DNA of 64,000 nt, from positions 173,308-237,307 of the IMG/VR virus record IMGVR_UViG_3300043395_001986; one strand, 5' to 3'. Below are positions 11,960-62,010 of this stretch, one piece after another; the stretch's first letter is position 1, and every line of letters begins with the position of its first letter. This stretch comes from a virus (lineage: Duplodnaviria > Heunggongvirae > Uroviricota > Caudoviricetes). A program made the translations under genes and the position numbers. Under the pieces are notes generated by a model, which was not told the DNA's origin, did no database searches, and was given only the letters and a program-made list of their open reading frames with translations.

Positions 11960-12604
11960 ATGACAACAATCATAAAAATAAAAAACTATATTGCAGATAA
12001 GATAGCAATATTTTTCCTGGCATTAGTAGGTATATGGATTGCTTTTGCATTATTATTCCAACTTACAATGGTGGGTATACATTTTAGTGGAAATACACAA
12101 TTAGAAACAGATATTGCAAATTGGTTTAGTTGGAAATTTGATGGTACATTCAAAAACTCACCAGAAAATATTTGGTATAATGCAGAGGAACATGTTTGGG
12201 TTGAAAGTGTAGAAAATAAAGTTAAAGTTGGTAAATTAGCTGGAAACAGAAATTTAGCATTCGGTGTTAAAAATGTTTTGGAAGAAGCATTGCAAGAAAA
12301 AGGATTGGATTTAGCACCATCAGCAACACAAAAATTAAAAGTTGAAATTATCTATTTAGATGTTTTAACAACAAAATCAAATATCTCCGTATTTCACAAA
12401 GGAGAAGAGGAAGTAGTCATCCGCCTTAAAGGTACAATTTACAAAGATGGCAAAAAAGACAAAGAGGTTATAGTTGAAGAAAGTTCTGCTGAAATCTCAA
12501 TGTCAACGCTCATAATAGATGAAGGTGGTAAGTTTAACCAGACTTCTTTAAGCAATGCATTGAAGAAAGGTTCTGTTAAACTTATTACTAAACTATTTGA
12601 GTAA
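11960..12604 (+). CDS. Membrane-anchored hypothetical protein
   Basis: Two N-terminal hydrophobic helices (IAIFFLALVGIWIAFALLFQLTMVGI); soluble C-terminal domain. Confidence 0.45.
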   Translation: MTTIIKIKNYIADKIAIFFLALVGIWIAFALLFQLTMVGIHFSGNTQLETDIANWFSWKFDGTFKNSPENIWYNAEEHVWVESVENKVKVGKLAGNRNLAFGVKNVLEEALQEKGLDLAPSATQKLKVEIIYLDVLTTKSNISVFHKGEEEVVIRLKGTIYKDGKKDKEVIVEESSAEISMSTLIIDEGGKFNQTSLSNALKKGSVKLITKLFE

Positions 12605-12606
12605 AT

Positions 12607-14271
12607 ATGAAAAAATTATCATTGTTAGTTGCAGCTTTGTTTGTAACTATACTATCATTTGGACAAATTGTTGTTAATCAATCGGTATCATCTGGACCAT
12701 ACAAGGTTGGGGATACAATAACAATAACATATACTGTCAATAAAGGTGAAACCAAGCCTCGTTATTTTTGGTTACGATACCAATATAACAATAAGGCGTT
12801 AACTTATCTTTCAACTACATTTTCACAAGGTAGCCAATCACAAACTTATTATACAGGTTGGACAAACTATAAGTTTACTCCAAATGCAAATATAGCAGAT
12901 ACTTCGTTGTATGCACAATATAATTCTACACCTTGGGGATATGTAACAAATGCAGATTGGAATGTTGGGCAATTAGCAGTTCAAAGAGCAGATAAAAGTA
13001 TAGATGGTGTATTAGCAACTCAAAAATACATTCTTAAAGACCAAAATGCATATGCGAACTTTCATAAATTAGACCTTTCATACGCAACGGATAGTGCAAG
13101 CGGTGTATATATTCCATATGTAAAAACAACTTCGGGTCCTTTATCAATAACTGGCGTAACAGGCAATACATCATATTTTAAAGTAAGAGTATTATACCCA
13201 TCCGGATATAGTATTACTGACCACAATGTTCAATTGATGCCACTTAAAACCGATGGTAGTGGTGATATAGATTGGGCAAAACAACCAATAGCACAAAAAG
13301 TATTAGATGCAAGTGGTGAAGCCTTATTCACATCTGGAATTAAAGTTGGTGATAGTGTTGGTGTATTTGTTTCAAACGCATCCCAAAAAAGTTGGATGAA
13401 TAATGTGATAACTGTCTCTGATGCATATAAAGCATTTTTAGGTATAACTCAAACAGATTTGACGGGAGTTCCAACATATTTCCAAAGACCAGCATTAGAA
13501 AAGAAAATTGGTAATGTAACTAAAAACGATATGGACTTTACAGAGGCAGATGCATACAATTTATTTGCATATGTAATGGGACAAGATGTATCAGCAAACG
13601 CATTTATTCCAACATCAACCGCAACTTCATGGAGATGGCATAGTGGTTTATTAAATCAAAGTTGGTTAAACGGAACGGCGACAAATAAAGTATATGTAAC
13701 AGCACCACAACAAACAGCAGAAGCGGTATTTGCATGGGGTGGTGATTTAGACTGGTCACATTCATCTTTTCCTGATACAATCGCAGCAAGAATAGCAAGT
13801 GGTATCTATACAAACGCAGTTAATCCTGGTACATCGGATGTAGCTAATATTAAAACTATGGCAGTTTCAACAAACACATCAATTGCATATAATTCGGCTA
13901 CATTAGAAACAATATCATTGGGTGTAACTTCTAAATTGGAAGGTGGTAAAGTTGTATTAAGTACAAACTTAACAAAAGAAGGTTTAGCAGGTTTACAGGT
14001 CATAATGCAATACGATAGCACAAAATTAAGTTTAGATAATGTAATATTCAATACAGGTTCAACAATGACAAACTTCTCAACAAAAGCAGATGGTAGACTG
14101 ACTTTTGGTTCTATTGACCAATTAAAAACTGCGCGAATTAAAGTTGGAACACCTTATATATTGATATTCACTCCAAAGGTAACATTAAATAATACAGCAG
14201 GTTTATTCTATTTCGTATTAGCAGATGCAGTTGACGGAAACGGAAACAAACTAAATCTAAACATAGAATAA
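12607..14271 (+). CDS. Secreted modular protein with dockerin-like repeats and C-terminal cohesin-like domain
   Basis: Sec signal MKKLSLLVAALFVTILSFGQ; VITVSDAYKAFLGITQTDLTG and NDMDFTEADAYNLFAYVMGQD resemble dockerin Ca-binding repeats; C-terminus KVVLSTNLTKEGLAGLQVIMQYDSTKLSLDNVIFNTGS...DGRLTFGSID matches the cohesin pattern (..V.V.L....GF.G.QF.L.YD...L......G). Confidence 0.6.
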   Translation: MKKLSLLVAALFVTILSFGQIVVNQSVSSGPYKVGDTITITYTVNKGETKPRYFWLRYQYNNKALTYLSTTFSQGSQSQTYYTGWTNYKFTPNANIADTSLYAQYNSTPWGYVTNADWNVGQLAVQRADKSIDGVLATQKYILKDQNAYANFHKLDLSYATDSASGVYIPYVKTTSGPLSITGVTGNTSYFKVRVLYPSGYSITDHNVQLMPLKTDGSGDIDWAKQPIAQKVLDASGEALFTSGIKVGDSVGVFVSNASQKSWMNNVITVSDAYKAFLGITQTDLTGVPTYFQRPALEKKIGNVTKNDMDFTEADAYNLFAYVMGQDVSANAFIPTSTATSWRWHSGLLNQSWLNGTATNKVYVTAPQQTAEAVFAWGGDLDWSHSSFPDTIAARIASGIYTNAVNPGTSDVANIKTMAVSTNTSIAYNSATLETISLGVTSKLEGGKVVLSTNLTKEGLAGLQVIMQYDSTKLSLDNVIFNTGSTMTNFSTKADGRLTFGSIDQLKTARIKVGTPYILIFTPKVTLNNTAGLFYFVLADAVDGNGNKLNLNIE

Positions 14272-25674: not shown

Positions 25675-26545
25675 AGAAAAATATGATACCATCTATATAA
25701 ATGGAAGTTCACATGCAGCAGGTGGTGGATTTGAAATTTCAACAATAGAAGAAAAACAAAAACAAATAAAAGGATATAAAGAAATTTTAGATATAGAATA
25801 TTCTAATCCAAAAGAAGTTTCATATGCAAATAGATTATCTGAATTATTAAATATTAAAGTAGTAAATGAAGCTAAAAGTGGAGGCGGACCGGAACGAATA
25901 ATACGAAAAATACACCAATATATAAAAGATAATAGTATAGATAAATTAAAAAAAACATTATTCATTTTAGAAATACCTTCAACTAATAGATTGGATTTAT
26001 GGTCAAATGAATTTATGGAACATTTGGTTTGTAATATAGATTTTAAAAAAGGTTGGGATGGAAGATTACAAACATTTGATTTAGATTATATTCATTTAGT
26101 TAGAGAACATTGGCAAAAAGATGATATATTGGAAATGAAATATACAAAATATTTTGAAGCGATTCAGAATTTTATAAAATATTTTCATAATCCTGTTGTA
26201 TATGAACGAAAAATAGAAAATGAATTAATTGGATTATTTTCTATATTAAAACATATGGGAATAGATTTTTATATTATGCAATCGGGAATGGGGTTGGATT
26301 TTCATAACAAATATAATTTAGAATTAGAAGATAAACATTTTATTAAAATATTTGATGATATTCGTCCAAATATAATTCCACCAAAAGATAAATATTTTAC
26401 TTGTATATCAATATGGAGTGGTACAAAGGGGTTACGAATATTGGATGAAATAGGTAGAGAATACTCAAATGATTATCACGCTGGATATGAAGCTAATAAA
26501 ATTTGGGCAGAATTATTAGCAGATTTCATATTAAAAAATTATTAA
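25649..26545 (+). CDS. SGNH/GDSL-family hydrolase-like protein (paralog 5)
   Basis: Block I YINGSSHAAGGGF, block II NEAKSGGGPERI, block V NDYHAGYEANKIWAELLA; start overlaps upstream gene by 26 nt. Confidence 0.5.
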   Translation: MTQKILNFKEKYDTIYINGSSHAAGGGFEISTIEEKQKQIKGYKEILDIEYSNPKEVSYANRLSELLNIKVVNEAKSGGGPERIIRKIHQYIKDNSIDKLKKTLFILEIPSTNRLDLWSNEFMEHLVCNIDFKKGWDGRLQTFDLDYIHLVREHWQKDDILEMKYTKYFEAIQNFIKYFHNPVVYERKIENELIGLFSILKHMGIDFYIMQSGMGLDFHNKYNLELEDKHFIKIFDDIRPNIIPPKDKYFTCISIWSGTKGLRILDEIGREYSNDYHAGYEANKIWAELLADFILKNY

Positions 26546-26670
26546 ATATGAAAAATTGTCAGTACATTTATTGTATGATTATAGCATATATACAATAGTT
26601 ATAAGGGTATGAATATCAATGCATTAGATAAAAATACCCTAAAAAATTTGTTATTATCGGGGACATTCCC

Positions 26671-26699: not shown

Positions 26700-26882
26700 A
26701 TGGCTAGTAAAAAGGATGAAATTTTCCAAACAATGAAAGCTTTGTGGGAAAAATTTGAAGTAGAAAACGCAAAATCAACAAAAGTATCTCAAAAAAATGC
26801 GAGAACTCTTATTGGCAACTTAAAGAAATTAGTAACTGAATACCGATTGGCTTCGGTAGAGGAAACGAAAAATAGTAATTAA
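26700..26882 (+). CDS. Hypothetical small protein
   Basis: 60-aa ORF bracketed by promoter-like motif and terminator. Confidence 0.4.
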   Translation: MASKKDEIFQTMKALWEKFEVENAKSTKVSQKNARTLIGNLKKLVTEYRLASVEETKNSN

Positions 26883-28358: not shown

Positions 28359-28379
28359 TTCTAAAATTACTGAAAAGCA

Positions 28380-28404
28380 AGGGGTCAAACGACCCCTTTT
28401 TTAT
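28380..28404 (+). terminator. Rho-independent terminator
   Basis: AAGGGGTC-aaac-GACCCCTT followed by TTTTA; perfect 8-bp GC-rich stem. Confidence 0.8.
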
Positions 28405-28616
28405 GTCCTATATATTATAAAAAATCATAATATATAAGTCATTGATCCTGGAAACCCAATAAAATAGGGGGGCGTAAGTCGTTGATAATCAATAACTTAA
28501 AAATGTGGATAACTTTTTTCCCTAAAAATTTGGTGGTCTCAATAATATTTCGTAATTTTGGTATTCTTAATTGATTTTCCACACACAATATTATATAAAA
28601 TCTAAAATCTAAAACT
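28405..28616 (+). promoter_or_regulatory. Long non-coding intergenic region with TTGAT-N3-ATCAA-type sites
   Basis: No ORF; contains GTCGTTGATAATCAATAAC (perfect palindrome TTGATAATCAA) and AAGTCATTGAT half-site shared with 40306-40604 region. Confidence 0.4.
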
Positions 28617-30731
28617 ATGGGTTGGTATGACTCGTTTAAAACCGGTACATTAGACTATATCGCTAATGGATGGGGTAAAAACAAAAAAGAAAAAAAGAAA
28701 TCAGCTTCATCTTTTTGGGCTGATGAATGGAGTAGGTATGAATATAGCGAACCTACTTATTGGAACGGAACGGACTATGTAACTAAAACTTTTACAAAAG
28801 TTGAAAGTGATACCGTCTCAATGGTTAAACTAAACGCACATCGTAGAGCTATTTCAAATTTCGTAAACATTCTTACAAACAAAAACATTCCTGTTAAGTT
28901 TGCTCGTAAAGGTGACTCTTATACGGATGGTAAAGAAGTAGTGTTATCAGCAGAAGTAAATCCAGAAAAGTTTGATATTGCAGTTGGTTTGGCATTGCAC
29001 GAAGCATCACATATCCAACTTACTGATTTTAAACTATTTCCTTCATATGTTGTTCCTGCGCACTTATTCAATAAATACGCAAAAACAATAGGATTAGATG
29101 TAAGTAGTGGTACGGATGTTCGTATAGCAAACGATACATTATTTGATGTAATTAAATCTCTTACAAATTTTGTAGAAGATAGAAGAATTGACCAATTCAT
29201 ATATGATACTTGTCCAGGTTATAGAGATTATTATCGTGCGTTGTATGAAGAATACTTTTACGATAAAGTGATTGATAAAGGTTTGAAAAGTGATGAATAT
29301 ACTACCGAAGATTTACAATCATATATGTTTCGTATTATCAATATTACAAATGCAAATACTGATTTGGGTAAATTAAAAGGTTTGAAAAAAATCTATCAAT
29401 TATTGGATTTAAAAACCATCAAACGTCTAAAATCAACAAAAGATAGTTTAGATATTGCAGAAAAAATTACCGATATATTGTTAGATAATATTATTATCGA
29501 GCAACAACAAAACCAAAATGGCAAAGGTGATAGTGGTGACCCTGCCGATATTAATGAAGATGGAAATGGTAATGAAGCAGGTGATACTCAAACTGATGAA
29601 ATGGGTGGGGGTAATGCAAATGTTAATGGTATCGGCCAACAATCGAATGATGATAAAGATTATTTATCTAAATCTGCAAAACAAACATTAGATAAGAAAA
29701 TCAAAAATCAAAAAGATTTTGTGAACAATCAAATCAAAAAGAAAGGTTTGACTAAAAAAGAAGAAGATACACTTGAACAAATTGCAAAGAGTGGTACTGA
29801 TATGGAAAGTGTGGGTGGTATGCATACTGACGAAGGACACTATCTTCCTGGTACACAATGTATCGTATCTAAAAAAATGACAGAAGAGTTGATGAAATCG
29901 GATAGTTTCCCTTTTGCAAATTGGAGTAGTTATGACAGTAAATGGTATAGTTTTAACGATAGATTACTGCAAGAAGGTATTGTATTAGGTACTTTGTTAG
30001 GTAAGAGACTACAAATTCGTAGTGAAGAAAGAGAAACTGTCACACCACGTCAAAAGAATGGTAGAATTGATAGAAGATTAGTTGCGGCATTGGGATTTGA
30101 TTATGAAAGTGTATTCAGTACAAAGGAAATTGATAAGTTCAAAAAAGTAATGTTGCATGTTTCTATTGATGGTAGTGGTAGTATGAGTGGCTCTTTATGG
30201 GATAGTGCACTTAAACTTACTATTGCACTTTGTAAAGCAACTACAATGGTATCTAATCTTGAAATTCAAGTTTCTATTAGGGGTACTTGGAATGAAAAAG
30301 CGTATGTTTGTATAGCATATGATAGTAGATTTGATAAGTTTACAAAAGTGAAACAATTATTTCCTGCATTGCACGCCAATGGTACAACACCAGAAGGGTT
30401 ATGTTACGAAGCAATTATGAAATACTTTGTAGAAAGTACCAAAGATATGGAAAGTTATTTTCTAAACATATGTGACGGTGAGCCTAATTTCCAAGATAAG
30501 AATTGTAATTATAGTGGAAAAGCCGCATTGTACCATACTAAAAAAATGGTATCTCTTATTAAAGAGAAAGGTATCAAAGTAATGAGTTATTTCGTTGCCG
30601 ATAGCGGATATGGTTACGGCCGTTCACGTGATAATTTCAAAACAATGTACGGAAGTGACAGTAAATTTATTGACATACAAGCCGTAGTACCTATTTCTAA
30701 AACCTTAAATGAATTGTTCCTAAAAAAATAA
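28617..30731 (+). CDS. CobT-like protein with C-terminal von Willebrand factor A (VWA) domain
   Basis: MIDAS motif VMLHVSIDGSGSMSG (DxSxS); acidic Gly/Asp-rich linker; large N-terminal domain; immediately followed by the partner AAA+ gene. Confidence 0.6.
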   Translation: MGWYDSFKTGTLDYIANGWGKNKKEKKKSASSFWADEWSRYEYSEPTYWNGTDYVTKTFTKVESDTVSMVKLNAHRRAISNFVNILTNKNIPVKFARKGDSYTDGKEVVLSAEVNPEKFDIAVGLALHEASHIQLTDFKLFPSYVVPAHLFNKYAKTIGLDVSSGTDVRIANDTLFDVIKSLTNFVEDRRIDQFIYDTCPGYRDYYRALYEEYFYDKVIDKGLKSDEYTTEDLQSYMFRIINITNANTDLGKLKGLKKIYQLLDLKTIKRLKSTKDSLDIAEKITDILLDNIIIEQQQNQNGKGDSGDPADINEDGNGNEAGDTQTDEMGGGNANVNGIGQQSNDDKDYLSKSAKQTLDKKIKNQKDFVNNQIKKKGLTKKEEDTLEQIAKSGTDMESVGGMHTDEGHYLPGTQCIVSKKMTEELMKSDSFPFANWSSYDSKWYSFNDRLLQEGIVLGTLLGKRLQIRSEERETVTPRQKNGRIDRRLVAALGFDYESVFSTKEIDKFKKVMLHVSIDGSGSMSGSLWDSALKLTIALCKATTMVSNLEIQVSIRGTWNEKAYVCIAYDSRFDKFTKVKQLFPALHANGTTPEGLCYEAIMKYFVESTKDMESYFLNICDGEPNFQDKNCNYSGKAALYHTKKMVSLIKEKGIKVMSYFVADSGYGYGRSRDNFKTMYGSDSKFIDIQAVVPISKTLNELFLKK

Positions 30732-30764: not shown

Positions 30765-31988
30765 ATGAGTAAAGTTAAAAACACAGAGTTCGGTTACACA
30801 AATGAAATTTACAAAGTTGAGAAAAATAAATCTCGCTTTAATTTAGTAAACACCGCAGATGAAATTATTGACGATTCAACAATAGTTGGTTCAACAATGA
30901 GAAAGAAAGCACATTCATCTGGCAAAGCTATTAGAGCACACATTAATAAAAATGGTGCAAAAACATTCCGTATGGTAGATATGAGTGAATTTGAAGCATT
31001 GAAAGTAAAACCAATGAATACTGACATTGCTGAAACAATTGTGGAAAATCCTACTGAACACAAAGACATTATTGACTTCATTCATGGTGAAGGATTGGCA
31101 CTAAAACCTGCTAATCTTATTATGAGTGAATTGAAGTGGAAATATTTAGTTCGTTCAGCAGTTAGAGCTCGTAATATTATGATGACAGGACCTGCCGGTA
31201 GTGGTAAGACAATGGCGGCTAAAGCATTGGTAAGTGCATTGAAACGACCATTTTTCTATTTCAATTTAGGTGCAACGCAAGACCCGAGAGCAGCGTTGAT
31301 TGGTAACACACACTTTAATAAAGCAAGTGGTACTTATTTTAGTGAGAGTGCTTTCGTAAAGGCAATCAAAACACCTTACGCAGTTATCCTATTGGATGAG
31401 TTATCTCGTTCACATCCAGAAGCTGCTAATATCCTAATGACTGTGTTAGACCAAACACAAAGATACTTGCGTTTGGATGAGCAAGAAAATTCACCAATCG
31501 TTAAGGTAGCAGATGGAGTGACATTTATTGCAACCGCAAACATTGGTAACGAATATACTGCAACACGTGTTATGGATAGAGCGTTGTTAGACCGTTTTGT
31601 AACTATCGAAGTTGATACTCTTAATGGAGAGCAAGAATATACATTGTTGAATATGTTGTATCCTGATACCAACCAAGATGATTTGAAAGCAATTGCTGAA
31701 ATCGCTTCTCACACTCGTGACCAAATCAAATCCGAAGCGGGTAAATTGACAACCGCAGTATCTACCCGTATTTCAGTAGAAATGGCTGGTTTGATTTATG
31801 ATGGTTTCAATTTGTTAGAAGCCGCTGAAGTTGCTATTTTCCCATTCTATTCGCAAGATGGTGGTATGGATAGTGAGCGTACATATATCAAACAATTAGT
31901 TCAAAAGTATTTGAGAGATGATAAAGATGGTGAACAATTGTTCAATGAGGTGACAGAAGATAACGATAGCGAAACTATCGTGTGGTAA
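30765..31988 (+). CDS. CobS/MoxR-like AAA+ ATPase
   Basis: Walker A MMTGPAGSGKTMAAKAL, Walker B AVILLDELSR, sensor region TANIGNEYTATR. Confidence 0.75.
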   Translation: MSKVKNTEFGYTNEIYKVEKNKSRFNLVNTADEIIDDSTIVGSTMRKKAHSSGKAIRAHINKNGAKTFRMVDMSEFEALKVKPMNTDIAETIVENPTEHKDIIDFIHGEGLALKPANLIMSELKWKYLVRSAVRARNIMMTGPAGSGKTMAAKALVSALKRPFFYFNLGATQDPRAALIGNTHFNKASGTYFSESAFVKAIKTPYAVILLDELSRSHPEAANILMTVLDQTQRYLRLDEQENSPIVKVADGVTFIATANIGNEYTATRVMDRALLDRFVTIEVDTLNGEQEYTLLNMLYPDTNQDDLKAIAEIASHTRDQIKSEAGKLTTAVSTRISVEMAGLIYDGFNLLEAAEVAIFPFYSQDGGMDSERTYIKQLVQKYLRDDKDGEQLFNEVTEDNDSETIVW

Positions 31989-33126: not shown

Positions 33127-34050
33127 ATGGCGTATGACAATTTAGATGCTTGGCAAAGAAGACAAGCGGAAATAGAAGAAGAAATGAAACAACACAAATT
33201 AGAACAACAATTAAAATTTAAAAAAATGATTAAATTATCAACGGCTGGAATTATTGGATTATTCGTATTATTATTTTTATTCAAATCATGTGAAAGAATT
33301 GATGCAGGACATGTTGGAGTTAAAGTAAACCTTTATGGTGATAACAAAGGCGTATCTGATGTAACAGAAGTGACGGGTATTGTGTTCTTTAATCCAATTA
33401 CACATAACATTTATGAGTTTCCAACATTCATTCAGCACAAGGAATATACAGGTGATAACGCATTCATCGTAAATAGTAAAGATGGTAGTGAGTTCCATAT
33501 TTCACCTATCATTAACTATTCAGTACAAAGAGAGAAAGTTCCGTACATATTTGCAAAGTATAGAAGAACATTATCATCTATTGAAGATGGTTTCTTAAAA
33601 ACAAATATCTATGATGCGTTCCGTATGACAGCAAACGCATATACGGCTGAGGAATTAATTAGTAATAGACAAACTTTTGAAAATAAAGTAAGAGCAACAT
33701 TAGATAGTACATTGTTAAAAGAAGGATTTGTTATCAATCAATTGACATCAAACCTAGTTTATCCTGAAACATTTAAGCAGGCGATTGAAGCTAAAAATAA
33801 CGCAGTTCAGGCAGCATTAAGAGCAGAGAACGAAGTTAAAACCGCTGAAGCACAGGCTAAAATACAAGTTGCAAAAGCAGAAGGTAACGCACAAGCTTTA
33901 TTAACATCGGCAAAAGCTGAGGCTGAAGCAAATAGAATGAAGCAACAAACATTGACACCATTACTTATTCAATTGGAGTATGTAAACAAATGGGATGGTA
34001 AATTACCAGTTTATGGGCAAGTACCACAATTGTTTAAAAACATACAATAA
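33127..34050 (+). CDS. SPFH/band-7 (prohibitin/HflC-like) membrane protein
   Basis: N-terminal TM (LSTAGIIGLFVLLFLF), SPFH core HVGVKVNLYG...FHISPIINYSV..., C-terminal Ala/Glu/Lys coiled-coil (AENEVKTAEAQAKIQVAKAEGNAQALLTSAKAEAEANR). Confidence 0.7.
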   Translation: MAYDNLDAWQRRQAEIEEEMKQHKLEQQLKFKKMIKLSTAGIIGLFVLLFLFKSCERIDAGHVGVKVNLYGDNKGVSDVTEVTGIVFFNPITHNIYEFPTFIQHKEYTGDNAFIVNSKDGSEFHISPIINYSVQREKVPYIFAKYRRTLSSIEDGFLKTNIYDAFRMTANAYTAEELISNRQTFENKVRATLDSTLLKEGFVINQLTSNLVYPETFKQAIEAKNNAVQAALRAENEVKTAEAQAKIQVAKAEGNAQALLTSAKAEAEANRMKQQTLTPLLIQLEYVNKWDGKLPVYGQVPQLFKNIQ

Positions 34051-37427: not shown

Positions 37428-38554
37428 ATTTTTTAGAAGTTAAAGATACAGAATTTGAAGTTTGTAATGTAAATGTAAACTTTGAAGAATACACCTATAA
37501 TAATAGAGTTGGATTTTTCAAATGGGTACAATCATTTTGTCAGCCTATTTCATTTTTAGCAAGTAATGCAAATGTATGTGTATTGATATATTCAATATCA
37601 TCTGACAAAGCATTGGAAAGTATAAATAAAAACTTTCACCTATTAAACAAATACAAAAAGATAATCATATTTCAGGAGGAACAAGATTTCATATGTTGTT
37701 CGTTGGAAAGATTTAATGCATTGAGAGATGAATTGCATTCTAAATTAAATGAGTTTGAAATAGAAGCTGTTTATTTTGATTTTAAATACAAATCTCAATA
37801 CGATTTGGGATTAAAAAGATACTACCATTTTGGTACTATAAATTATCTATTTGAATTAAATTTCAATTATATAGACAAGTACGATTATAACAGAGAGAAA
37901 ACAAAATACTTTTATAGTGGAAATGCGGCAGAAAGAGCACCTAGATTTCACCTACAAAAATATCTAACAGATAATAATCTTTTACATAATAATCAAGTTT
38001 CATTTTTTATTTATAGTGACAAAAATATCATTGAATATAATGAAAGTGTTGAAGGGTATGGTGAGTTTGATAAAATAAAAGATTTTACTTTTAAGAAAAT
38101 TGAATTTGAAACAACAAGTAATCTATCCGAATATACTCGTCTTTTGGAATTTAATGCATCACCAGATGCTTTAGCGGAAATTTCAATTGAAACGCTATCT
38201 AAATCGTATGGTGATTATGTTATTCAATTTTCAGAAAAAAGTTTCAAACCATTTTTCTATAAAAGACCATTTATGTTATTTGGATATAAAAATAATATAG
38301 AATGTTTGAAAGAATTGGGATATAAAACATTTGATTTTATATTTGATGAGTCGTATTCCGAAATAGATGAACAGCAACAACGATTAAATTCTATATTTAA
38401 AAACATAGGAAACTTTTGTGAAAAACCAATTGAAGAAAATTTAGAACTAATAAATAAACATTCAGATATTTATAACTATAATTTAGATAATTTAAAAAAT
38501 TTTATAGTTACAAATAAAGAAAACTTGCGTTATGAAATTATTAGTTATAGGTGA
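37418..38554 (+). CDS. Unknown paralog family 'X' member 3
   Basis: FSEKSFKPFFYKRPFMLFGYKNNIECLKELGYKTFDFIFDESYSEIDEQQQRLNSIF; near-collinear with member 2. Confidence 0.5.
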   Translation: MLVNFLEVKDTEFEVCNVNVNFEEYTYNNRVGFFKWVQSFCQPISFLASNANVCVLIYSISSDKALESINKNFHLLNKYKKIIIFQEEQDFICCSLERFNALRDELHSKLNEFEIEAVYFDFKYKSQYDLGLKRYYHFGTINYLFELNFNYIDKYDYNREKTKYFYSGNAAERAPRFHLQKYLTDNNLLHNNQVSFFIYSDKNIIEYNESVEGYGEFDKIKDFTFKKIEFETTSNLSEYTRLLEFNASPDALAEISIETLSKSYGDYVIQFSEKSFKPFFYKRPFMLFGYKNNIECLKELGYKTFDFIFDESYSEIDEQQQRLNSIFKNIGNFCEKPIEENLELINKHSDIYNYNLDNLKNFIVTNKENLRYEIISYR

Positions 38555-39263
38555 TAGTTGCACGGATGTATTTGTGTATGGTTATTGTAAACGATTATGT
38601 CCAGAAGGACCCGTTCCTATCTTTGAGCCATCTCGTACAATTACAAATATGGGTATGAGTGGTAATGTAGTAGCTAATCTTAAATCATTAGGAGCTGAGA
38701 AAGTTGAATTGGTTACAAATAGGGAACAGATTACCAAAACAAGATATGTTGAAGAAAAGGCAAATCACTTAATCATTCGTATTGATAGTAATGATAAAGT
38801 AGGTAATTCTTTTGATATTAAAAAAGTACCATTTAATGATTATGATGCGGTTATAGTATCTGATTATGATAAGGGATATTTAACTTATGATGATTTAGAA
38901 AGTATCGCCAAATCACATCCATTAACATTTATAGATACCAAGAAACCTTTAAATGAAAAAATGAAAGGATATACCTTCATAAAAATAAATGAGGTAGAAT
39001 GGGATGCTTGTAAAGGACAGGAGTATTCTAATTGGGAAGATAAATTAATTATAACAATGAGTGAGAGAGGTGCGATGTATAATGGAATAACCTACCCTGT
39101 AAATAATGATATTGAAGTTAGAGACTTAAGCGGTGCAGGTGATACCTTTATGGCAGGTTTAGCAATTAGTTATCTTAAAACAAAAAGTATAGAACGAAGT
39201 ATTCAATTTGCAAATGAATGCGCAACAAAAGTAGTTCAGAAAAAAGGAGTAGTAACATTATGA
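38532..39263 (+). CDS. PfkB-family sugar kinase, RfaE/HldE domain-I-like (D-glycero-beta-D-manno-heptose-7-phosphate kinase-like)
   Basis: N-terminus LLVIGDSCTDVFVYGYCKRLCPEGPVPIFEP...MGMSGNVVANLKSLGA parallels HldE domain I; PfkB motif DLSGAGDTFMAGL. Confidence 0.72.
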   Translation: MKLLVIGDSCTDVFVYGYCKRLCPEGPVPIFEPSRTITNMGMSGNVVANLKSLGAEKVELVTNREQITKTRYVEEKANHLIIRIDSNDKVGNSFDIKKVPFNDYDAVIVSDYDKGYLTYDDLESIAKSHPLTFIDTKKPLNEKMKGYTFIKINEVEWDACKGQEYSNWEDKLIITMSERGAMYNGITYPVNNDIEVRDLSGAGDTFMAGLAISYLKTKSIERSIQFANECATKVVQKKGVVTL

Positions 39264-39682
39264 CAAAGGTATGGGTAAACGGAACATTTGATATTGTCCA
39301 TTTGGGACATATACAAATGCTAAAAAAAGCAGCAGATTTAGGTGATTTTTTAATAGTTGGAGTTGATAGTGATAAAAGAGTTAGTGAATTAAAAGGAGAA
39401 GATAGACCTATTAATAAATTGATAAGTAGAATTACATTATTAGAAGCAATCAAATATGTTGATAGAGTTGTATCATTTGACTCGGATGAACAATTAGAAA
39501 CTTTGATTAAAACAATGAGACCTACAATAATGGTAATAGGAGAAGAATATAGGGATAAAAGAATTATAGGAAAAGAGTATGTAGGTGAAATTGTATATTT
39601 TCCTAAAATGGAAGGGTTTAGTTCAACAAACATTATAAATAAGTTATATGACAGAGAGAAAGTATCTACCAACATTAAGTGA
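39260..39682 (+). CDS. Cytidylyltransferase-fold nucleotidyltransferase, RfaE/HldE domain-II-like (heptose-1-phosphate adenylyltransferase-like)
   Basis: VWVNGTFDIVHLGHIQMLKKAADLGDFLIVGVDSDKRVSELKGEDRPINKLISRITLLEAIKYVDRVVSFDSD and FSSTNIINKL match HldE domain II; ATGA overlap with kinase gene (start moved from track 39218 to ATG 39260). Confidence 0.78.
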   Translation: MTKVWVNGTFDIVHLGHIQMLKKAADLGDFLIVGVDSDKRVSELKGEDRPINKLISRITLLEAIKYVDRVVSFDSDEQLETLIKTMRPTIMVIGEEYRDKRIIGKEYVGEIVYFPKMEGFSSTNIINKLYDREKVSTNIK

Positions 39683-40052
39683 ATTAATTGACAGATTAAG
39701 CATTGTTCAATTAAAAGAAGTGTTTATTCCTGAACACAAAGCGGAATACGCACAGGAAATAGCGGATATAGTAAATGATATTCAAATCCTATTAGATGAA
39801 AATAAAGGTGTAGTGACCGCAGAAACTATTAGAGCAATTGTAGTATTATCTCAAATGAATTTACATATTTGGCATAACGAGTCAAACTATCGTAAGGGAA
39901 TTAAAGATGGTAACAATTTAGAATTAACACATGGTATCAATGGTATAAGAAATACTGCAAAGAATAAGATACAGGAAGTTAATGGTGGCAGAAAAGATTA
40001 TAAAATAGATTGTTTAGCAGCAGAGTTTAAAGATTGGGAAATTAGTTGGTAA
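39648..40052 (+). CDS. Hypothetical protein
   Basis: 134-aa ORF. Confidence 0.4.
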   Translation: MTERKYLPTLSELIDRLSIVQLKEVFIPEHKAEYAQEIADIVNDIQILLDENKGVVTAETIRAIVVLSQMNLHIWHNESNYRKGIKDGNNLELTHGINGIRNTAKNKIQEVNGGRKDYKIDCLAAEFKDWEISW

Positions 40053-40080
40053 TATTTTTTGTAGTATCAAATACTTTTAG

Positions 40081-40088
40081 TACATTTG
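40081..40088 (+). promoter_or_regulatory. Bacteroidota-type -7 promoter element TACATTTG
   Basis: 5 nt upstream of ATG 40093 (near-leaderless). Confidence 0.35.
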
Positions 40089-40092
40089 TATT

Positions 40093-40305
40093 ATGAAAAG
40101 AAAAATGATACAATTAGAAATAGACCAATCTGAATTTTTTAACATATACTACCCGTTAGTAAGTGAATTTCCAGCAGAGTTTAAAGAGTCGATCCCGTTT
40201 TTCAAAAGTCAATTACAAAAACTTGCAGAAGTTGAAGATTATGAAAAATGTGCAAAATTACGGGATTTGATTGAATTAATACAAAATATTGAAGAAAATA
40301 ACTAA
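40093..40305 (+). CDS. Hypothetical small protein
   Basis: 70-aa ORF. Confidence 0.4.
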   Translation: MKRKMIQLEIDQSEFFNIYYPLVSEFPAEFKESIPFFKSQLQKLAEVEDYEKCAKLRDLIELIQNIEENN

Positions 40306-40604
40306 TTGATTATCAATTAGTTGTACAACCCATTGATTATCAACGGCTTATAGAGGTTTCATAAGTCATTGATTTTCAATGGGTTTTTGTATGTCATTGA
40401 TTTTCAATGACTTATGTAACTTATTGATACTGAATTAGTTAGATATTGAATTCATATATTACAAAAAAATATATGTGTAATTCGTTGATTTTCAAGCAAG
40501 AATTTTTAAAAATAGTTGACTCAAAGTGCGCAAGCAATGTATAAAAATCGTATCTTTGTTTTGTTCGGTAAAGAATACCCCAACACATTATAAAAAATCT
40601 TAAT
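40306..40604 (+). promoter_or_regulatory. Non-coding region with array of inverted repeats TTGAT-W3-TCAA (candidate operator/origin)
   Basis: Sites: TTGATTATCAA (x2), GTCATTGATTTTCAATGGG, GTCATTGATTTTCAATGAC (8-bp perfect arms), TTGATTTTCAAG, plus two degenerate copies; ends with TATCTTTG promoter-like box. Confidence 0.5.
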
Positions 40605-41435
40605 ATGAAAAGTATGTTACAATTTACAACAATTAGTTCTGCCAAAAAATTAACTGGTTTAAGTTATTTAGGTAGTGTTGCTTCATCGTCTAAAATTGCC
40701 AAAGGTTTACAATACAACGAAATGACGTATATATTGTATCTTGCTCCGGCTTCTCAAAGTGGATATAATGTTTGTCCAATGAGTACCGAAGAATGTAGAA
40801 CTGCTTGTTTAACCGAGTCTGGCCATAATCGTATTGACGTTAAAAAGAATAACATTAATAAAGCTCGTATCAAAAAGACTAAATTGTTCTTTGAACATAG
40901 AGAGTTCTTTATGAGTTGGTTAGTTGTTGAAATTACAAAAGCTAAAATTGATGCACATATGAAAGGTTATCAATTTTCAGTTCGTATCAATGGTACATCC
41001 GATATTAGTTTAGAAAGTTTCAAATTGAATGGTAAGAATATATTACAAATGTTCCCACTTATTCCTTTCTATGACTATACAAAAGTTGCTAAACGATTTG
41101 ATATGTTAAAGAAATACGATAACTATGATTTAACATATTCATTCAGCGGACATAATATGATACAATGTATTGATTTGTTAAGTAAAGGTAACGGACGTGT
41201 TGCGATGGTATTTGAAGGTAAGGTATTACCAAAAACATTTATGGGGTTTGATGTAATTGATGGTGATGCGTATGATATGAGATACTATGATGAACAAGGT
41301 GTTATTGTAGGATTGAAGTTTAAGAAAGTAAGAAACAAAATTGACACATCAAATAACGCATTCATTATTCCAATGGATAGTAAATTTAGTGTATATGAAA
41401 ACGAAAACAAAAAAGTTAAAGTTGCTGCCAAATAG
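40605..41435 (+). CDS. Hypothetical protein (Cys-cluster CPMSTEECRTAC)
   Basis: 276-aa ORF downstream of repeat region. Confidence 0.45.
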   Translation: MKSMLQFTTISSAKKLTGLSYLGSVASSSKIAKGLQYNEMTYILYLAPASQSGYNVCPMSTEECRTACLTESGHNRIDVKKNNINKARIKKTKLFFEHREFFMSWLVVEITKAKIDAHMKGYQFSVRINGTSDISLESFKLNGKNILQMFPLIPFYDYTKVAKRFDMLKKYDNYDLTYSFSGHNMIQCIDLLSKGNGRVAMVFEGKVLPKTFMGFDVIDGDAYDMRYYDEQGVIVGLKFKKVRNKIDTSNNAFIIPMDSKFSVYENENKKVKVAAK

Positions 41436-42012: not shown

Positions 42013-42270
42013 ATGAATATGAAAAAGAAAAAATTAGTAATGATTGATTGTATAAAATGTGGTAACAAAATGCCAGAATTACGATTTACTAAATTTGGTT
42101 ATCGTAGTTGTGTTAATTGTTCGACTGTTCAAAAAGTTGGTGGTGTAGCGATAGCTAATCACAAAACGGGTAATGAGATACAAATCATGCCCAAAGAAAT
42201 TGCAGATAGACTATATATGTTATCTCAACGACAAGGTTATGGAGTTTGTAAAGGTATGAAACATAATTAA
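42013..42270 (+). CDS. DksA/TraR-family C4 zinc-finger protein
   Basis: CIKCGNKMPELRFTKFGYRSCVNCS = C-x2-C-x17-C-x2-C with MPExR matching the TraR/DksA finger. Confidence 0.55.
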   Translation: MNMKKKKLVMIDCIKCGNKMPELRFTKFGYRSCVNCSTVQKVGGVAIANHKTGNEIQIMPKEIADRLYMLSQRQGYGVCKGMKHN

Positions 42271-42648: not shown

Positions 42649-43308
42649 ATGAGAATAACAAATAGAACATCAACTTACATTGCAACTATTCCAATGAAAA
42701 GTATTGAGCAAGTTATAGAAGTTAAGGAAACATTAGAACAAATATTTGGATGGGTAGTATTGAAAGGTAGACATAGTGACCGAAAATCAGTATTAACAAA
42801 TTGGAGAAAGTTTGGACAAAATGATGTACCCTGGCGTAAAGCTGAATACATTGACATTTACTTACATCCTAAAAATCCAAATTATCAATCGGTAAATAAA
42901 GGTAATGGTATTCGTAGAGCTAATATGATTGGCTCTTTGTTAGTACCAAGAGTATTGGGTAAACACAAACAAGGTTTTTATGATGGTTGGGTAAATGAAC
43001 AAGAAACTAAAAAAAATCCAATATATCAGGCAATACAAAGTTTAAAAACACGAAAAAATTCACCACATTCTGGTAAACCATATGGTACTATTGCACAACA
43101 AATATGGAGTTTCATGAATAAAGTTGGTGAAGCAACTTATAGTGAAATGAAAGCATTTTATGATGTTGATGTAAGGGGTAATAATAGTATTATTAATGGT
43201 GGTAGTTTTATACATCACTTACAATCATTAAGAAAACCATCAAAGAAACGTGGGTGGTATTTAAGTAAACAATTAAATGGTAAATACGCATTAAGAATTT
43301 CTAAATAA
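42649..43308 (+). CDS. Hypothetical protein
   Basis: 219-aa ORF, basic. Confidence 0.4.
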   Translation: MRITNRTSTYIATIPMKSIEQVIEVKETLEQIFGWVVLKGRHSDRKSVLTNWRKFGQNDVPWRKAEYIDIYLHPKNPNYQSVNKGNGIRRANMIGSLLVPRVLGKHKQGFYDGWVNEQETKKNPIYQAIQSLKTRKNSPHSGKPYGTIAQQIWSFMNKVGEATYSEMKAFYDVDVRGNNSIINGGSFIHHLQSLRKPSKKRGWYLSKQLNGKYALRISK

Positions 43309-47431: not shown

Positions 47432-47728
47432 ATGTTAAAGATTAAAAATCCAAATGATATAGTAGGGATGAATTTTATAGATGGTAGATATAAACTACAC
47501 CGGGTTGCAGAACAAGATGATAGATACCGATTTGAATTCAGAGATACCAAAGAACAAAAATGGGTTTGTGTTGATATACATATAGAAGCTCAATGGGATA
47601 GTGAAGAAAGTAGAAATATGTATAAAGTTGATAATGGTACAGGTATGGGTCATAGGATATCGGCTAAATGGTTTAGTAACATTAAGAATGTGCAATTTAC
47701 ATTTAAACAAGCATTAAAAGTATTATAA
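47432..47728 (+). CDS. 'MLxIxN' small-protein family member 2
   Basis: MLKIKNPNDIVGMNF N-terminus. Confidence 0.45.
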   Translation: MLKIKNPNDIVGMNFIDGRYKLHRVAEQDDRYRFEFRDTKEQKWVCVDIHIEAQWDSEESRNMYKVDNGTGMGHRISAKWFSNIKNVQFTFKQALKVL

Positions 47729-50376: not shown

Positions 50377-50685
50377 ATGAATTTAACAATTAAAAACTAC
50401 GAAAAACTAAAAGGTAAAGGTTGGGATGCTAAAAATTTTATAGAACAAGTTAGTGAAAAGACTGATAGTTATCAAATTAATGTATGGCGAGGACATATGA
50501 GACACCATATTATTTTATATAGAAAACCATTAGAAAATGGTTATTATGAAATTGGAAAATGGAGTAATTCAAGTTATAGTGTAAACTATCCTTATTGGAT
50601 AAAACATGAAGATATATTAGATATAGAAAGTTTAATGGATAAACTTAAATTCCTAACGGATGATTGGAAACCTAAATTGTTATAA
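50377..50685 (+). CDS. Hypothetical protein
   Basis: 102-aa ORF. Confidence 0.4.
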   Translation: MNLTIKNYEKLKGKGWDAKNFIEQVSEKTDSYQINVWRGHMRHHIILYRKPLENGYYEIGKWSNSSYSVNYPYWIKHEDILDIESLMDKLKFLTDDWKPKLL

Positions 50686-57017: not shown

Positions 57018-57203
57018 ATGGCTAAAGAGGTTTCTAAAATAGAAAGGCCTCAAAAATTTGAACATAGATTTGAGGATGACGAGTGCATTCAAATATGGAA
57101 ATATGATTTAAAGAAGTTTAGTAGAGGACCTATTTCAGTTGAAACACAATGGAAAGCTAAATATCTAAAAGAATTAGAAGTTAAAAAACGCAGAGGCAGA
57201 TAA
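57018..57203 (+). CDS. Hypothetical small protein
   Basis: 61-aa ORF. Confidence 0.4.
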   Translation: MAKEVSKIERPQKFEHRFEDDECIQIWKYDLKKFSRGPISVETQWKAKYLKELEVKKRRGR

Positions 57204-58694: not shown

Positions 58695-59234
58695 ATGTTA
58701 GATAAATTAATAGATTTTTTGGTAAGGTTTTATAAAGATGCCTTACCATTTGTGATTATTGAACAATGGAACGCGGGAGTGCAATTAAGATTTGGAAAAT
58801 ACATAAAGAATTTAAAAGCAGGTATATACATTAAAATACCTTTCTTTGACTCTATTATTGAATGTCCTGTGATTACACAATCAGTTAATTTGCCATCACA
58901 AACACTAACTACACTGGATGAACAAAGTATTGTATTAAAATCAATAATCAGATACCACGTTAAAGATGTGAGAAAATATTTGCTGACAGTAATGCATGCA
59001 AATGATGTCCTAATTGATACAACGCAAGGTATAATTAGGGATGTTGTAGAAATGACAAATTGGCCGGACTTGGTAGATGTAAATTCACAAATAACAAATG
59101 AAGTTAAGGAGTATGTAAAAAAATGGGGAATAGAAGTTGAAGCAGTAACTATAACCGATTTGGGTTTAGTAAAAAGTTTTAGAATATTTGGTGATGAAGC
59201 GCATAAGACAACAATACTACCAACTGATATATAA
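58695..59234 (+). CDS. SPFH/band-7 domain protein (second copy, no C-terminal coiled coil)
   Basis: IIEQWNAGVQLRFGKYIKNLKAGIYIKIPFFDSIIECPVITQSVNLPSQTLTTLDEQSIVLKSIIRYHVKD matches SPFH core (..e.g.v.rfGk....l.pG.h..iPf.d.v...). Confidence 0.55.
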   Translation: MLDKLIDFLVRFYKDALPFVIIEQWNAGVQLRFGKYIKNLKAGIYIKIPFFDSIIECPVITQSVNLPSQTLTTLDEQSIVLKSIIRYHVKDVRKYLLTVMHANDVLIDTTQGIIRDVVEMTNWPDLVDVNSQITNEVKEYVKKWGIEVEAVTITDLGLVKSFRIFGDEAHKTTILPTDI

Positions 59235-61123: not shown

Positions 61124-61426
61124 ATGCTAACAATAGAAAATCTTATTCCTAATATCAATAGAGAATTTAGTTGGGAAGGTAATGAGTGGATATTATACGG
61201 AGCAGATAAAACAATAATGGATTATACATTTTGTTTTATACCAATGCAAGCGGGTAGATATGATACACAAAATGTAGTCTATATTAAATTAAATAGATAT
61301 AAAGACAAGGATACAGGATACGCAGTATACAATCCAAATGGTGTCTGCATATATGTTCAAAGTAACGATATGAAATCGTGGATAAAATTCGTAGAATTAA
61401 TTTGTAAAAATAAAATGTTATGCTAA
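61124..61426 (+). CDS. 'MLxIxN' small-protein family member 3
   Basis: MLTIENLIPNI. Confidence 0.45.
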   Translation: MLTIENLIPNINREFSWEGNEWILYGADKTIMDYTFCFIPMQAGRYDTQNVVYIKLNRYKDKDTGYAVYNPNGVCIYVQSNDMKSWIKFVELICKNKMLC

Positions 61427-61683
61427 CAATTAAAAATCCGCATAAGATAATTGGTGAAGATTATAGTGATTGGTTAAAAGTAATTGGTGTAAAAGAACAT
61501 AAAAATCATTATGAATTTACATTGGCAAATAGAGAAATGAGCCAAATAGAAACAATACTTTTACATAGGGAAAAAACCGAGAATGGAATGTACATAATGG
61601 AATACAATAGTAGCACACTTTGGTTAAATCAAAATGAAATTGATGCAATTGGTAAAATTATTATTTGTATGCAAACTATATAA
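61420..61683 (+). CDS. 'MLxIxN' small-protein family member 4
   Basis: MLTIKNPHKIIGEDY; overlaps member 3 by 7 nt. Confidence 0.45.
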   Translation: MLTIKNPHKIIGEDYSDWLKVIGVKEHKNHYEFTLANREMSQIETILLHREKTENGMYIMEYNSSTLWLNQNEIDAIGKIIICMQTI

Positions 61684-61686
61684 GAT

Positions 61687-62010
61687 ATGCTGACAATACA
61701 AAACATACAAAAATTAGAAGGAACGCCCTTACACACTACGAAAGCAAGATGGGTAGTGATGGATATAGAGGAACGAAAGAATGATTATCTTATTAGAGTA
61801 AGATATAATTATGGCCTTATACCTTTTGTAAAACATCCAAAATGGGTAGTGTTTAAAATATTAAGATATAACGAATTTCAAAGTACATTAAACGAATGGC
61901 GAATGTATAATGACCAAAATAGTAACTATGTAACACTAACAAAAGGTTTATTAGATTTGAACATGTTTATTGGTATGTTAGGTGGGCAATTAGAGGATTG
62001 TACTAAATAA
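61687..62010 (+). CDS. 'MLxIxN' small-protein family member 5
   Basis: MLTIQNIQKLEGT. Confidence 0.45.
   Translation: MLTIQNIQKLEGTPLHTTKARWVVMDIEERKNDYLIRVRYNYGLIPFVKHPKWVVFKILRYNEFQSTLNEWRMYNDQNSNYVTLTKGLLDLNMFIGMLGGQLEDCTK

Follow-up and report, generated by a model that had tools for sequence, protein, structure and literature searches.

A repeated 25-bp dyad upstream of promoters in a large phage genome and its relatives: putative operator sites of a dimeric regulatory protein

What is the role of a non-coding stretch of about 300 bp (positions 40306-40604), crowded with inverted repeats, in an otherwise tightly packed phage genome? The initial annotation of the window, i.e. the 64-kb stretch of viral DNA analysed here, had offered a replication origin, a partition site or a master operator for a dimeric regulator. 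The convincing open reading frames of the window are all on the + strand, its G+C content is about 30% and its non-coding share is about 5%. Several of its gaps contain TAnnTTTG boxes, often with a TTTG 19-21 nt 5' of them; TTTG-N19-21-TAnnTTTG is the consensus of Bacteroidota sigma-A (-33/-7) promoters. Because these promoter elements are accompanied by Bacteroidota-style signal peptides on many of the window proteins, the host of the phage is likely to be a member of the Bacteroidota. The same phage was recognised on two contigs, one of 45 kb from JGI and one of 0.2-1 Mb, and the genes directly to the left of the window encode a clamp-loader-like AAA+ protein, Cpn10 and a PD-(D/E)XK nuclease, which places the window in a large phage genome. 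Freshwater phages of this kind are known from metagenomes only. Among cultured phages, searches for DNA closely or distantly similar to the array region were negative, and a consensus-cassette query yielded only marginal matches. Cellulophaga phage Calle_1 was discarded as a model system, as its 73 kb contain one half-site-like match and it has no protein in common with the window. Other genes of the window include a weak DksA-like zinc-finger match (42013-42270), a weak H1/Hc1-like match of 60 aa (26700-26882), two SPFH/Band-7 proteins (33127-34050 and 58695-59234) and a PfkB-kinase and cytidylyltransferase pair (38532-39682), which could be HldE-like. Several small ORFs (at 47432-47728, 50377-50685 and 61124-62010) start near-identically when compared by eye (MLTI/MLKI...N...), which suggests a paralogous family. 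A tRNA search of the region found none.

Comparison with relatives defines the repeat unit as a 25-bp dyad, TAAC-N3-TTGA-N3-TCAA-N3-GTTA, which is often extended to ttCATAACTCGTTGAT-W-ATCAATGAGTTATGaa; in the window phage the outer arms frequently read TAAG/CTTA instead of TAAC/GTTA. The TTGAT palindrome originally taken as the unit is thus the genuine core of a longer element with TAAC/GTTA outer arms. The core TTGATNNTCAA occurs at eight places in the 64 kb, with 11 matches on both strands against 2.6 +/- 1.8 expected, a count that was reached in none of 100 shuffles. Five of the eight places (40306, 40333, 40369, 40397 and 40485) fall inside 190 bp (40306-40495) and one is in the second gap (28482), while the remaining two (11516 and 17317) lie in genes and have full-site matrix scores below zero. 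For scoring, a half-site weight matrix was built from the relatives only and then run on the window; the collection of sites required the core TTGA-N3-TCAA, which is therefore invariant by construction. All seven matrix matches (Table 1) are non-coding and confined to the two gaps that had been flagged in the initial annotation, and six of them score far above every shuffle, the best score in 20 shuffles being 12.1 bits. The repeats are accordingly real and non-random. As the two coding core matches score below zero, the density of the motif in the coding DNA of the window is not similar to that in the gaps, which argues against an artefact of base composition.

Several details of the earlier description need adjustment. 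Of two copies listed as degenerate, TTGATACTGAA is a good site (site 5), in which the inner right arm reads TGAA rather than TCAA with both outer arms intact, whereas TTGAATTCATA at about 40446 gives no matrix match. Likewise, of two repeats described as having perfect 8-bp arms, GTCATTGA...TCAATGAC stands but TCATTGA...TCAATGG has six perfect pairs. Symmetry is best in site 1, AACTAATTGAT-T-ATCAATTAGTT, the left arm of which overlaps the stop codon of the gene at 40093-40305. The half-site noted in the second gap is real. That gap (28359-28616) is not the only other long one, since further gaps of 154-248 bp exist at 26546, 26883, 56024 and 60410; these contain no sites. A literature search with the core sequences found no description of the element.

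Table 1. Dyad sites and associated features of the two cassettes within the window
Feature	Coordinates	Strand	Sequence	Matrix score (bits)	Remarks
Site 1	40299..40323		TAACTAATTGATTATCAATTAGTTG	27.0	centre 40311; perfect 11-bp arms (inverted repeat I7)
Site 2	40326..40350		CAACCCATTGATTATCAACGGCTTA	29.5	centre 40338, 27 bp from site 1; best score in the window
Site 3	40362..40386		TAAGTCATTGATTTTCAATGGGTTT	25.3	centre 40374
Site 4	40390..40414		TATGTCATTGATTTTCAATGACTTA	25.1	centre 40402, 28 bp from site 3; inverted repeat I8
Site 5	40417..40441		TAACTTATTGATACTGAATTAGTTA	21.4	centre 40429
AT-rich inverted repeat	40453..40475		CATATATTACAAAAAAATATATG		from alignment of 8 cassettes and relatives' upstream regions
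Site 6, promoter-proximal	40478..40502		TAATTCGTTGAT (left half)	12.8 (left half 15.6)	centre 40490; left half alone strong
Bacteroidota-type -7 box	40551..40558	+	TATCTTTG		read from sequence and distance class
Motif 2 copy	40584..40607	+	CACATTATAAAAAATCTTAATATG		0 mismatches to motif pattern; ends in ATG of GP88-family gene
GP88 (PF17338) family gene	40605..41435	+			Pfam; first gene after the array
Predicted intrinsic terminator	28379..28405	+			closes upstream transcription unit
Motif 2 copy	28411..28434	+	TATATTATAAAAAATCATAATATA		5' edge of second cassette
Isolated half-site	28435..28446		TAAGTCATTGAT	16.1 (left half)	second gap
Full site	28475..28499		TAAGTCGTTGATAATCAATAACTTA	29.0	centre 28487; second gap
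Predicted promoter	28529..28560	+	-7 TAATTTTG		-33 TTTG 28529-28532, 20-nt spacer, -7 box 28553-28560

In the window phage the sites belong to three cassettes, located at 28.4 kb, at 40.3 kb and near 65.7 kb, which would provide several target promoters. At 40.3 kb the AT-rich inverted repeat separates the distal array from the proximal site, a position that is kept in related cassettes. Site 6, which like most of its counterparts in relatives is devoid of the right outer arm, forms an invariant block in the cassette alignment. The -7 box starts 61 bp downstream of its centre, and no TTTG -33 element is present at the expected place in this GP88 promoter of the window, a condition that would be compatible with dependence on an activator. 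The operon from 40605 onward is thus putatively controlled by the array. A sigma-70-like TTGACT-N18-TATAAA (40516-40545), spotted by eye only, was rejected as it is absent from the sigma-70-type scan matches and is not conserved in relatives. In the second cassette the -7 box starts 66 bp from the centre of the full site, and the predicted promoter would drive a CobT-like gene (28617-30731) and a MoxR-type AAA+ gene (30765-31988). Homologues of this pair with sites upstream are found in loci L039, L040, L048, L063, L074, L081, L109 and L136 of our collection; a search by peptide patterns for relatives of the 704-aa CobT-like protein was unsuccessful. The third cassette lies about 1.6 kb past the end of the window (L277, 12310-12562); in it a terminator is followed by motif 2, then by three sites, a -7 box and a further motif 2 copy ending in ATG, after which comes the gene for a 121-aa protein (p121); the segment of L277 holding this cassette and the p121 region (12240-12925) corresponds to about 65.55-66.2 kb in window numbering. 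Homologues of p121 are found directly behind arrays of 2-5 sites in all five independent contexts (including L041, L120, L285 and L287), and in the two 20-kb loci examined these arrays are the only sites present.

The leader that follows the -7 box was also inspected. That of the GP88 operon (40559-40583) belongs to a set of leaders that often form a GC-rich hairpin of 4-6 bp capped by an A/G-rich loop, and comparable hairpins are seen in L009, L011, L017, L277, L285 and L287. The stems vary by locus (GGGT/ACCC, GAGT/ACTC, CCCC/GGGG, GGTA/TACC), and by sequence comparison these differences are suggestive of compensatory change. The leaders of L003, L021 and L024 do not fit the pattern. In L006 (about 4916-4975), L008 and L019, a strong terminator-like hairpin, GAGGGGTGAATATTGCCCC, with a T-run is located about 55 nt after the cassette promoter and before the GP88 gene; it could represent a small RNA or an attenuator.

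Inverted repeats can reflect either a structured nucleic acid or the symmetry of a bound protein. Each of the dyads is in principle foldable as a 10-12-bp hairpin, and repeated dyads would be expected if they acted as terminators, cruciforms or RNA elements, or if the array were the centromere of a plasmid-prophage. In 238 non-redundant viral sites, the complementarity between the arms equals the expectation for independent half-sites at all 18 symmetric positions (e.g. 0.47 observed versus 0.46 expected; 0.29 versus 0.33). In the absence of covariation, the symmetry has to be understood as two matches to one consensus rather than as base pairing. Promoter-proximal sites commonly retain one outer arm only. 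Further, no terminator with a T-tract is called in 40000-40700, no Rfam family matches, and the sites are upstream of the promoter. As for a partition site, neither ParA nor ParB was found among the window ORFs scanned. Both the structural and the centromere explanations are hence extremely improbable, and the dyad fits recognition by a dimeric protein rather than a hairpin.

The arrangement of the sites is equally telling with respect to one another and to promoters. Neighboring sites are mainly 25-29 bp apart, i.e. one site length, which amounts to end-to-end tiling, and spacings of 42 and 48-50 bp form minor peaks. One or two sites per locus is the usual number. With promoters assigned by consensus only, distances measured from the centre of a site to the first base of TAnnTTT[GA] are far from evenly distributed and peak at 50, 56, 60-61 and 66-67 bp. 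The GP88 relatives account for the distance of 50, and 18 non-identical loci from two clades for that of 56; the window contributes one case each at 61 (40490 to 40551) and 66 (28487 to 28553). The typical layout is a dyad, an A-rich tract, TTTGG, 19-20 nt and TATCTTTG, with spacers that are otherwise divergent. The pairs 50/61 and 56/67 are each one helical turn apart, but taken together the distances 50, 56, 61 and 67 include half-turn steps and do not correspond to one helical phase. If the start of the box is taken to be near -11, the site centre comes to about -61 to -78, a zone used by upstream activators. The promoter-proximal site never overlaps the -33/-7 elements. In the window, host-type promoters at 26.6, 27.8, 28.1, 56.2 and 62.0 kb are not associated with any site, and so the site marks a subset of promoters.

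These associations extend over a considerable collection of uncultured viruses. Relatives of the GP88 protein are encoded in 36 IMG/VR loci, and all 27 of those with at least 77% identity and available upstream sequence (L001-L026 and L035) have 1-6 sites within 700 bp upstream of the gene, while relatives of 56-59% identity have none upstream; GP88 relatives without sites are represented by L027-L034. Scanning the collection with the 25-bp pattern added at least 120 further viral loci, bringing the IMG/VR loci compared to at least 156; by shared proteins these form three main clades and singletons. Among the matches listed, 113 of 126 pattern-found sites are intergenic against an expectation of 17% (P about 4e-72), and in these loci, again among the matches listed, they lie 60-270 bp upstream of unrelated genes. 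The genes that follow sites include those for GP88, the MoxR AAA+ protein, its CobT-like partner, p121 and homologues of the 34452 and 42288 products, as well as others that on reading of the sequence appear to be GroEL-like, DNA methylase-like, ParB-like and DUF262-like. As these genes are mutually unrelated, the distribution has the pattern of a regulon and not that of a single-copy element.

We therefore consider it probable, with moderate confidence, that the repeats are operator sites of a dimeric protein situated on a promoter cassette, and that they define a phage regulon whose regulator is likely an activator. This corresponds to the third of the functions initially proposed, which gains from the independence of the half-sites, the preferred distance to the -33/-7 elements and the presence before many genes in three clades. 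We infer protein binding, the phage origin of the binder and the sign of regulation. A sequence-specific protein would bind as a dimer, with one subunit per 12-bp half-site (A)TAAC-T-y-R-TTGAT. In the cassette, one to six sites would be followed by an A/T-rich tract, then by a -33/-7 promoter of the Bacteroidota sigma-A type, and finally by a short leader and the start codon; the promoter-proximal site would lie some 60-80 bp ahead of the point where transcription probably starts. Given that this site is upstream of, and does not overlap, the -33/-7 elements, the bound protein would act on the host RNA polymerase from upstream, most likely as a class I-like activator. The tiled distal copies before the GP88 operon might allow cooperative, high-occupancy binding at a key operon, and at least three units of the window phage would be regulated, namely the GP88 operon (40605 on), the CobT-like/MoxR pair (28617 on) and the p121 gene. 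Most of the site-linked promoters have near-consensus -33/-7 elements, so that an activator may not be needed, and repression or modulation from upstream, by analogy with phi29 p4 at promoter A2c, would fit equally well.

Comparable regulatory arrangements are known. CRP at class I-type activator sites is centred at -61.5/-72.5, and the late activators P2 Ogr, P4 Delta and Mu C/Mor act at dyad sites. As in these systems, the present dyad appears suited to a dimer, is upstream of the core promoter without overlapping it, shows distances separated by helical turns (50/61 and 56/67) and is repeated before several operons. Unlike them, it has an unrelated consensus, a Bacteroidota -33/-7 promoter, two distance series offset by half a turn and up to six tiled sites. 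In the p4 region of phi29 (A2c/A2b/A3), inverted repeats of a small regulator at about -70 to -80 upstream of sigma-A promoters serve in activation or repression. The packing of several inverted-repeat sites into about 200 bp upstream of sigma-A promoters is similar here, but we found no sequence or protein similarity, and phi29 has one control region per genome as opposed to the many promoters and phages involved in this case. The streptococcal operator of FabT, a MarR family protein, contains TTGATTATCAA, with the central 11 bp identical to our site, implying that a winged-helix dimer can read such a core. The wider FabT operator consensus is ANTTTGATTATCAAATT; its flanks differ from those of our dyad, the organisms are unrelated and no MarR-family protein was detected in the window, and we use this comparison as an analogy only.

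The tiling of sites near an AT-rich tract also recalls replication origins. Under this proposal a phage initiator would use the tiled sites as iterons, the AT-rich segment 40443-40477 would be an unwinding element, and the promoter would activate or prime replication, as adjacent promoters do at T4 oriF/oriG and lambda ori. The array is among the largest of the collection, with five sites of at least 15 bits and a proximal half-site where others mostly have one or two. In one clade sites precede a gene that resembles a replisome organiser in its sequence, and the RepL-gp87 intergenic region of crAssphage contains one 27-bit site. The six tiled sites and the AT-rich inverted repeat beside the promoter are indeed present, but the whole genome is about 70% A+T, and the crAssphage match is within chance for a 2.3-Gb database. 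GC skew, which had been suggested as a check, is positive throughout the window and never changes sign; DnaA boxes are not enriched (28 versus 30 expected); and the array adjoins no gene for an initiator, helicase or primase, its neighbors being a UVR-motif protein, GP88 and proteins of unknown function. Like lambda ori, plasmid iterons and the omega/parS heptad arrays of pSM19035, the array comprises tiled, internally symmetric repeats in AT-rich non-coding DNA beside a promoter; it differs from them in the lack of an adjacent initiator or partition gene and of a skew signal, and in that the site is single at many promoters. The site stands singly at the preferred promoter distance before dozens of unrelated genes, and at no fewer than three loci in the window phage itself. 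As the combination of site and promoter recurs both in this phage and in hundreds of contigs from related uncultured Bacteroidota phages, transcription control is the most likely function, and an origin appears distinctly improbable, though large arrays might have a secondary role of this kind. A perfect DnaA box, TTATCCACA (28504-28512, - strand), between the site and the promoter of the second cassette was dismissed as a chance occurrence, being not conserved in relatives. The crAssphage match (L281, Carjivirus communis, 1060-1084), which may be due to chance, is located in a putative control or origin region, where a pair of 29-bp direct repeats and a palindromic AT-rich stretch adjoin it.

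If the sites are operators, which protein reads them? No Pfam DNA-binding domain was found in the ORFs scanned at 24-64 kb other than a weak HTH in an HNH endonuclease, and no DNA-binding candidate came out of about 80 window ORFs scanned against Pfam and PHROG. Three products had been put forward as binders. That of 25063 is an HNH endonuclease, and that of 27870, Lys/Ala-rich by eye, has a weak Pfam match below threshold; neither is retained. The third, encoded by 42649-43308 in the GP88 operon, has 540 unannotated homologues. In its AlphaFold model (mean pLDDT 73) the last 70 residues fold as three helices plus a beta-hairpin, an arrangement resembling a winged helix, and its Foldseek matches are weak (E above 0.5), comprising a LOTUS domain, the F93 winged-helix protein, Nur and Z-alpha. 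This predicted winged-helix-like C-terminus speaks for the proposal, but a link to the site did not emerge. The p121 model (mean pLDDT 65) gave no informative match in a fold search; fold searches with both models were without a significant match, and a PDB sequence search with the 42649 and GP88 products returned nothing useful. The 42649-43308 product and p121 are thus weak candidates, by position only. A small protein (57018-57203) that is frequent near sites in one clade was set aside because it is in a conserved gene block.

The paucity of phage candidates raises the possibility that a conserved Bacteroidota DNA-binding protein reads the dyad, and that phages use it to drive or time their promoters. 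A single consensus is indeed found over three phage clades with few common genes in the sampled loci, and many Bacteroidota genomes contain the pattern, one Microscillaceae MAG more than 20 times, with 115 of 121 sites intergenic. There is also a precedent in SrpA, a host protein which is reported to bind a palindrome upstream of a phage gene (PMC5945682). Against this, the matches in bacterial genomes show no coupling to -7 boxes; perfect palindromes are more frequent among them, with a fully complementary N3 in 20% as against 4% of viral sites; nineteen are between convergent genes; several are directly beside tRNA genes and followed by T-runs; and no recurrent gene family is found next to them. 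These features indicate that the bacterial matches are a mixture of terminators, genome-specific repeats and chance matches, and a host regulon derived from this heterogeneous set was not upheld. Recognition by a host factor hence seems unlikely to us. Among these bacterial loci (L160-L276), the Microscillaceae MAG Prado074 has the pattern on more than 20 contigs, sometimes paired, beside another repeated hairpin element, while in the NPL-UPA2 MAG it is located at the very ends of at least eight contigs with identical flanks, like a repeat or the end of a mobile element.

The cassette as a whole appears to be portable. Those preceding GP88 and the unrelated p121 align over about 170 nt with 67% mean column identity, with conserved blocks in the order AT-rich inverted repeat, proximal half-site, A/T tract, -7 box and motif 2 with ATG. 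Among 28 relatives, nine gene families are represented immediately 5' of the GP88 cassette, and the window contributes a tenth. Another clade shows a conserved block, the cassette and a variable gene (families 15, 82, 291, 155 and others), in that order, and the variable families at this position are partly the same as those upstream of GP88 cassettes. A repeated, promoter-containing motif is thus situated at junctions of conserved and variable genes. This is reminiscent of the PeSL (promoter-early stem-loop) cassettes of T4-like phages, which are described as small conserved composite regulatory motifs repeated in the genome, at junctions of conserved and variable genes with different neighbors in close relatives (PMC2839356, PMC4122927); the PeSL sequence is another one, and the dyad here is a putative protein site rather than a terminator stem-loop. 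Terminators are found ahead of the third cassette and, at 28379, ahead of the second, but none lies before the one at 40306. Large genes of families 15, 82, 155 and 291, two of which look DUF262-like and ParB-like, alternate just after or before the cassette (L046, L050, L060, L061, L083, L084, L087, L100, L119, L145 and L151; L001-L017), and judging from such resemblances they may be swappable nuclease, defence or anti-defence cargo.

Motif 2 is a 24-nt element, CAYATTAYAAWWWWTNNTWATATG, itself an inverted repeat (CATATTA...TAATATG), with eight matches against 1.3 expected. In addition to the copies in Table 1 it is found at 26527-26550 and 44811-33, and in L277 at 12326-49 and 12539-62; an 18-mer is identical between the 40584 copy and 28414. 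It lies at the 5' edge of the cassette and again directly before and including the start codon, and in relatives the 5' copy often has a stop within the next 1-3 codons. Its possible roles are those of a second operator, of a phage-specific promoter for near-leaderless mRNA or of a recombination boundary of the cassette.

It is conceivable, then, that the cassette is primarily a PeSL-like recombination substrate for gene shuffling, in which the dyads have no separate role in binding. The exchange of genes around it, the similarity of cassettes before unrelated genes and the presence of motif 2 on both flanks are all in keeping with such a function. Recombination alone, however, leaves unexplained a dyad of such high information whose half-sites are independent, the tiling of the sites and their preferred distances to the -7 box across divergent spacers, and as the sole explanation we regard it as improbable. 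It is compatible with the operator interpretation and no replacement for it. A more speculative synthesis, which we regard as somewhat unlikely in its entirety, is that a cassette bounded by motif 2 is carried by a large undescribed supergroup of Bacteroidota phages, and that it wires acquired genes into one regulon under a single regulator with a new fold, possibly of the p121 family, doubles as a recombination point for gene swaps and, in the form of large arrays, might also start replication.

Returning to the preferred interpretation as operator sites of a dimeric regulator, the motif, its spread over uncultured Bacteroidota phages and the behavior of the cassette appear to be undescribed, whereas the kind of element is familiar, and general concepts are unchanged by the finding. 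To our knowledge, hardly any work has addressed transcription control in Bacteroidota phages other than the crAss-like ones. An operator of such high information predicts co-regulated gene sets in the genomes of uncultured phages, and could be used as bait for the identification of the regulator. It would also serve as a marker of the junctions at which variable genes, some of which look nuclease- or defence-related from their sequences, are exchanged.
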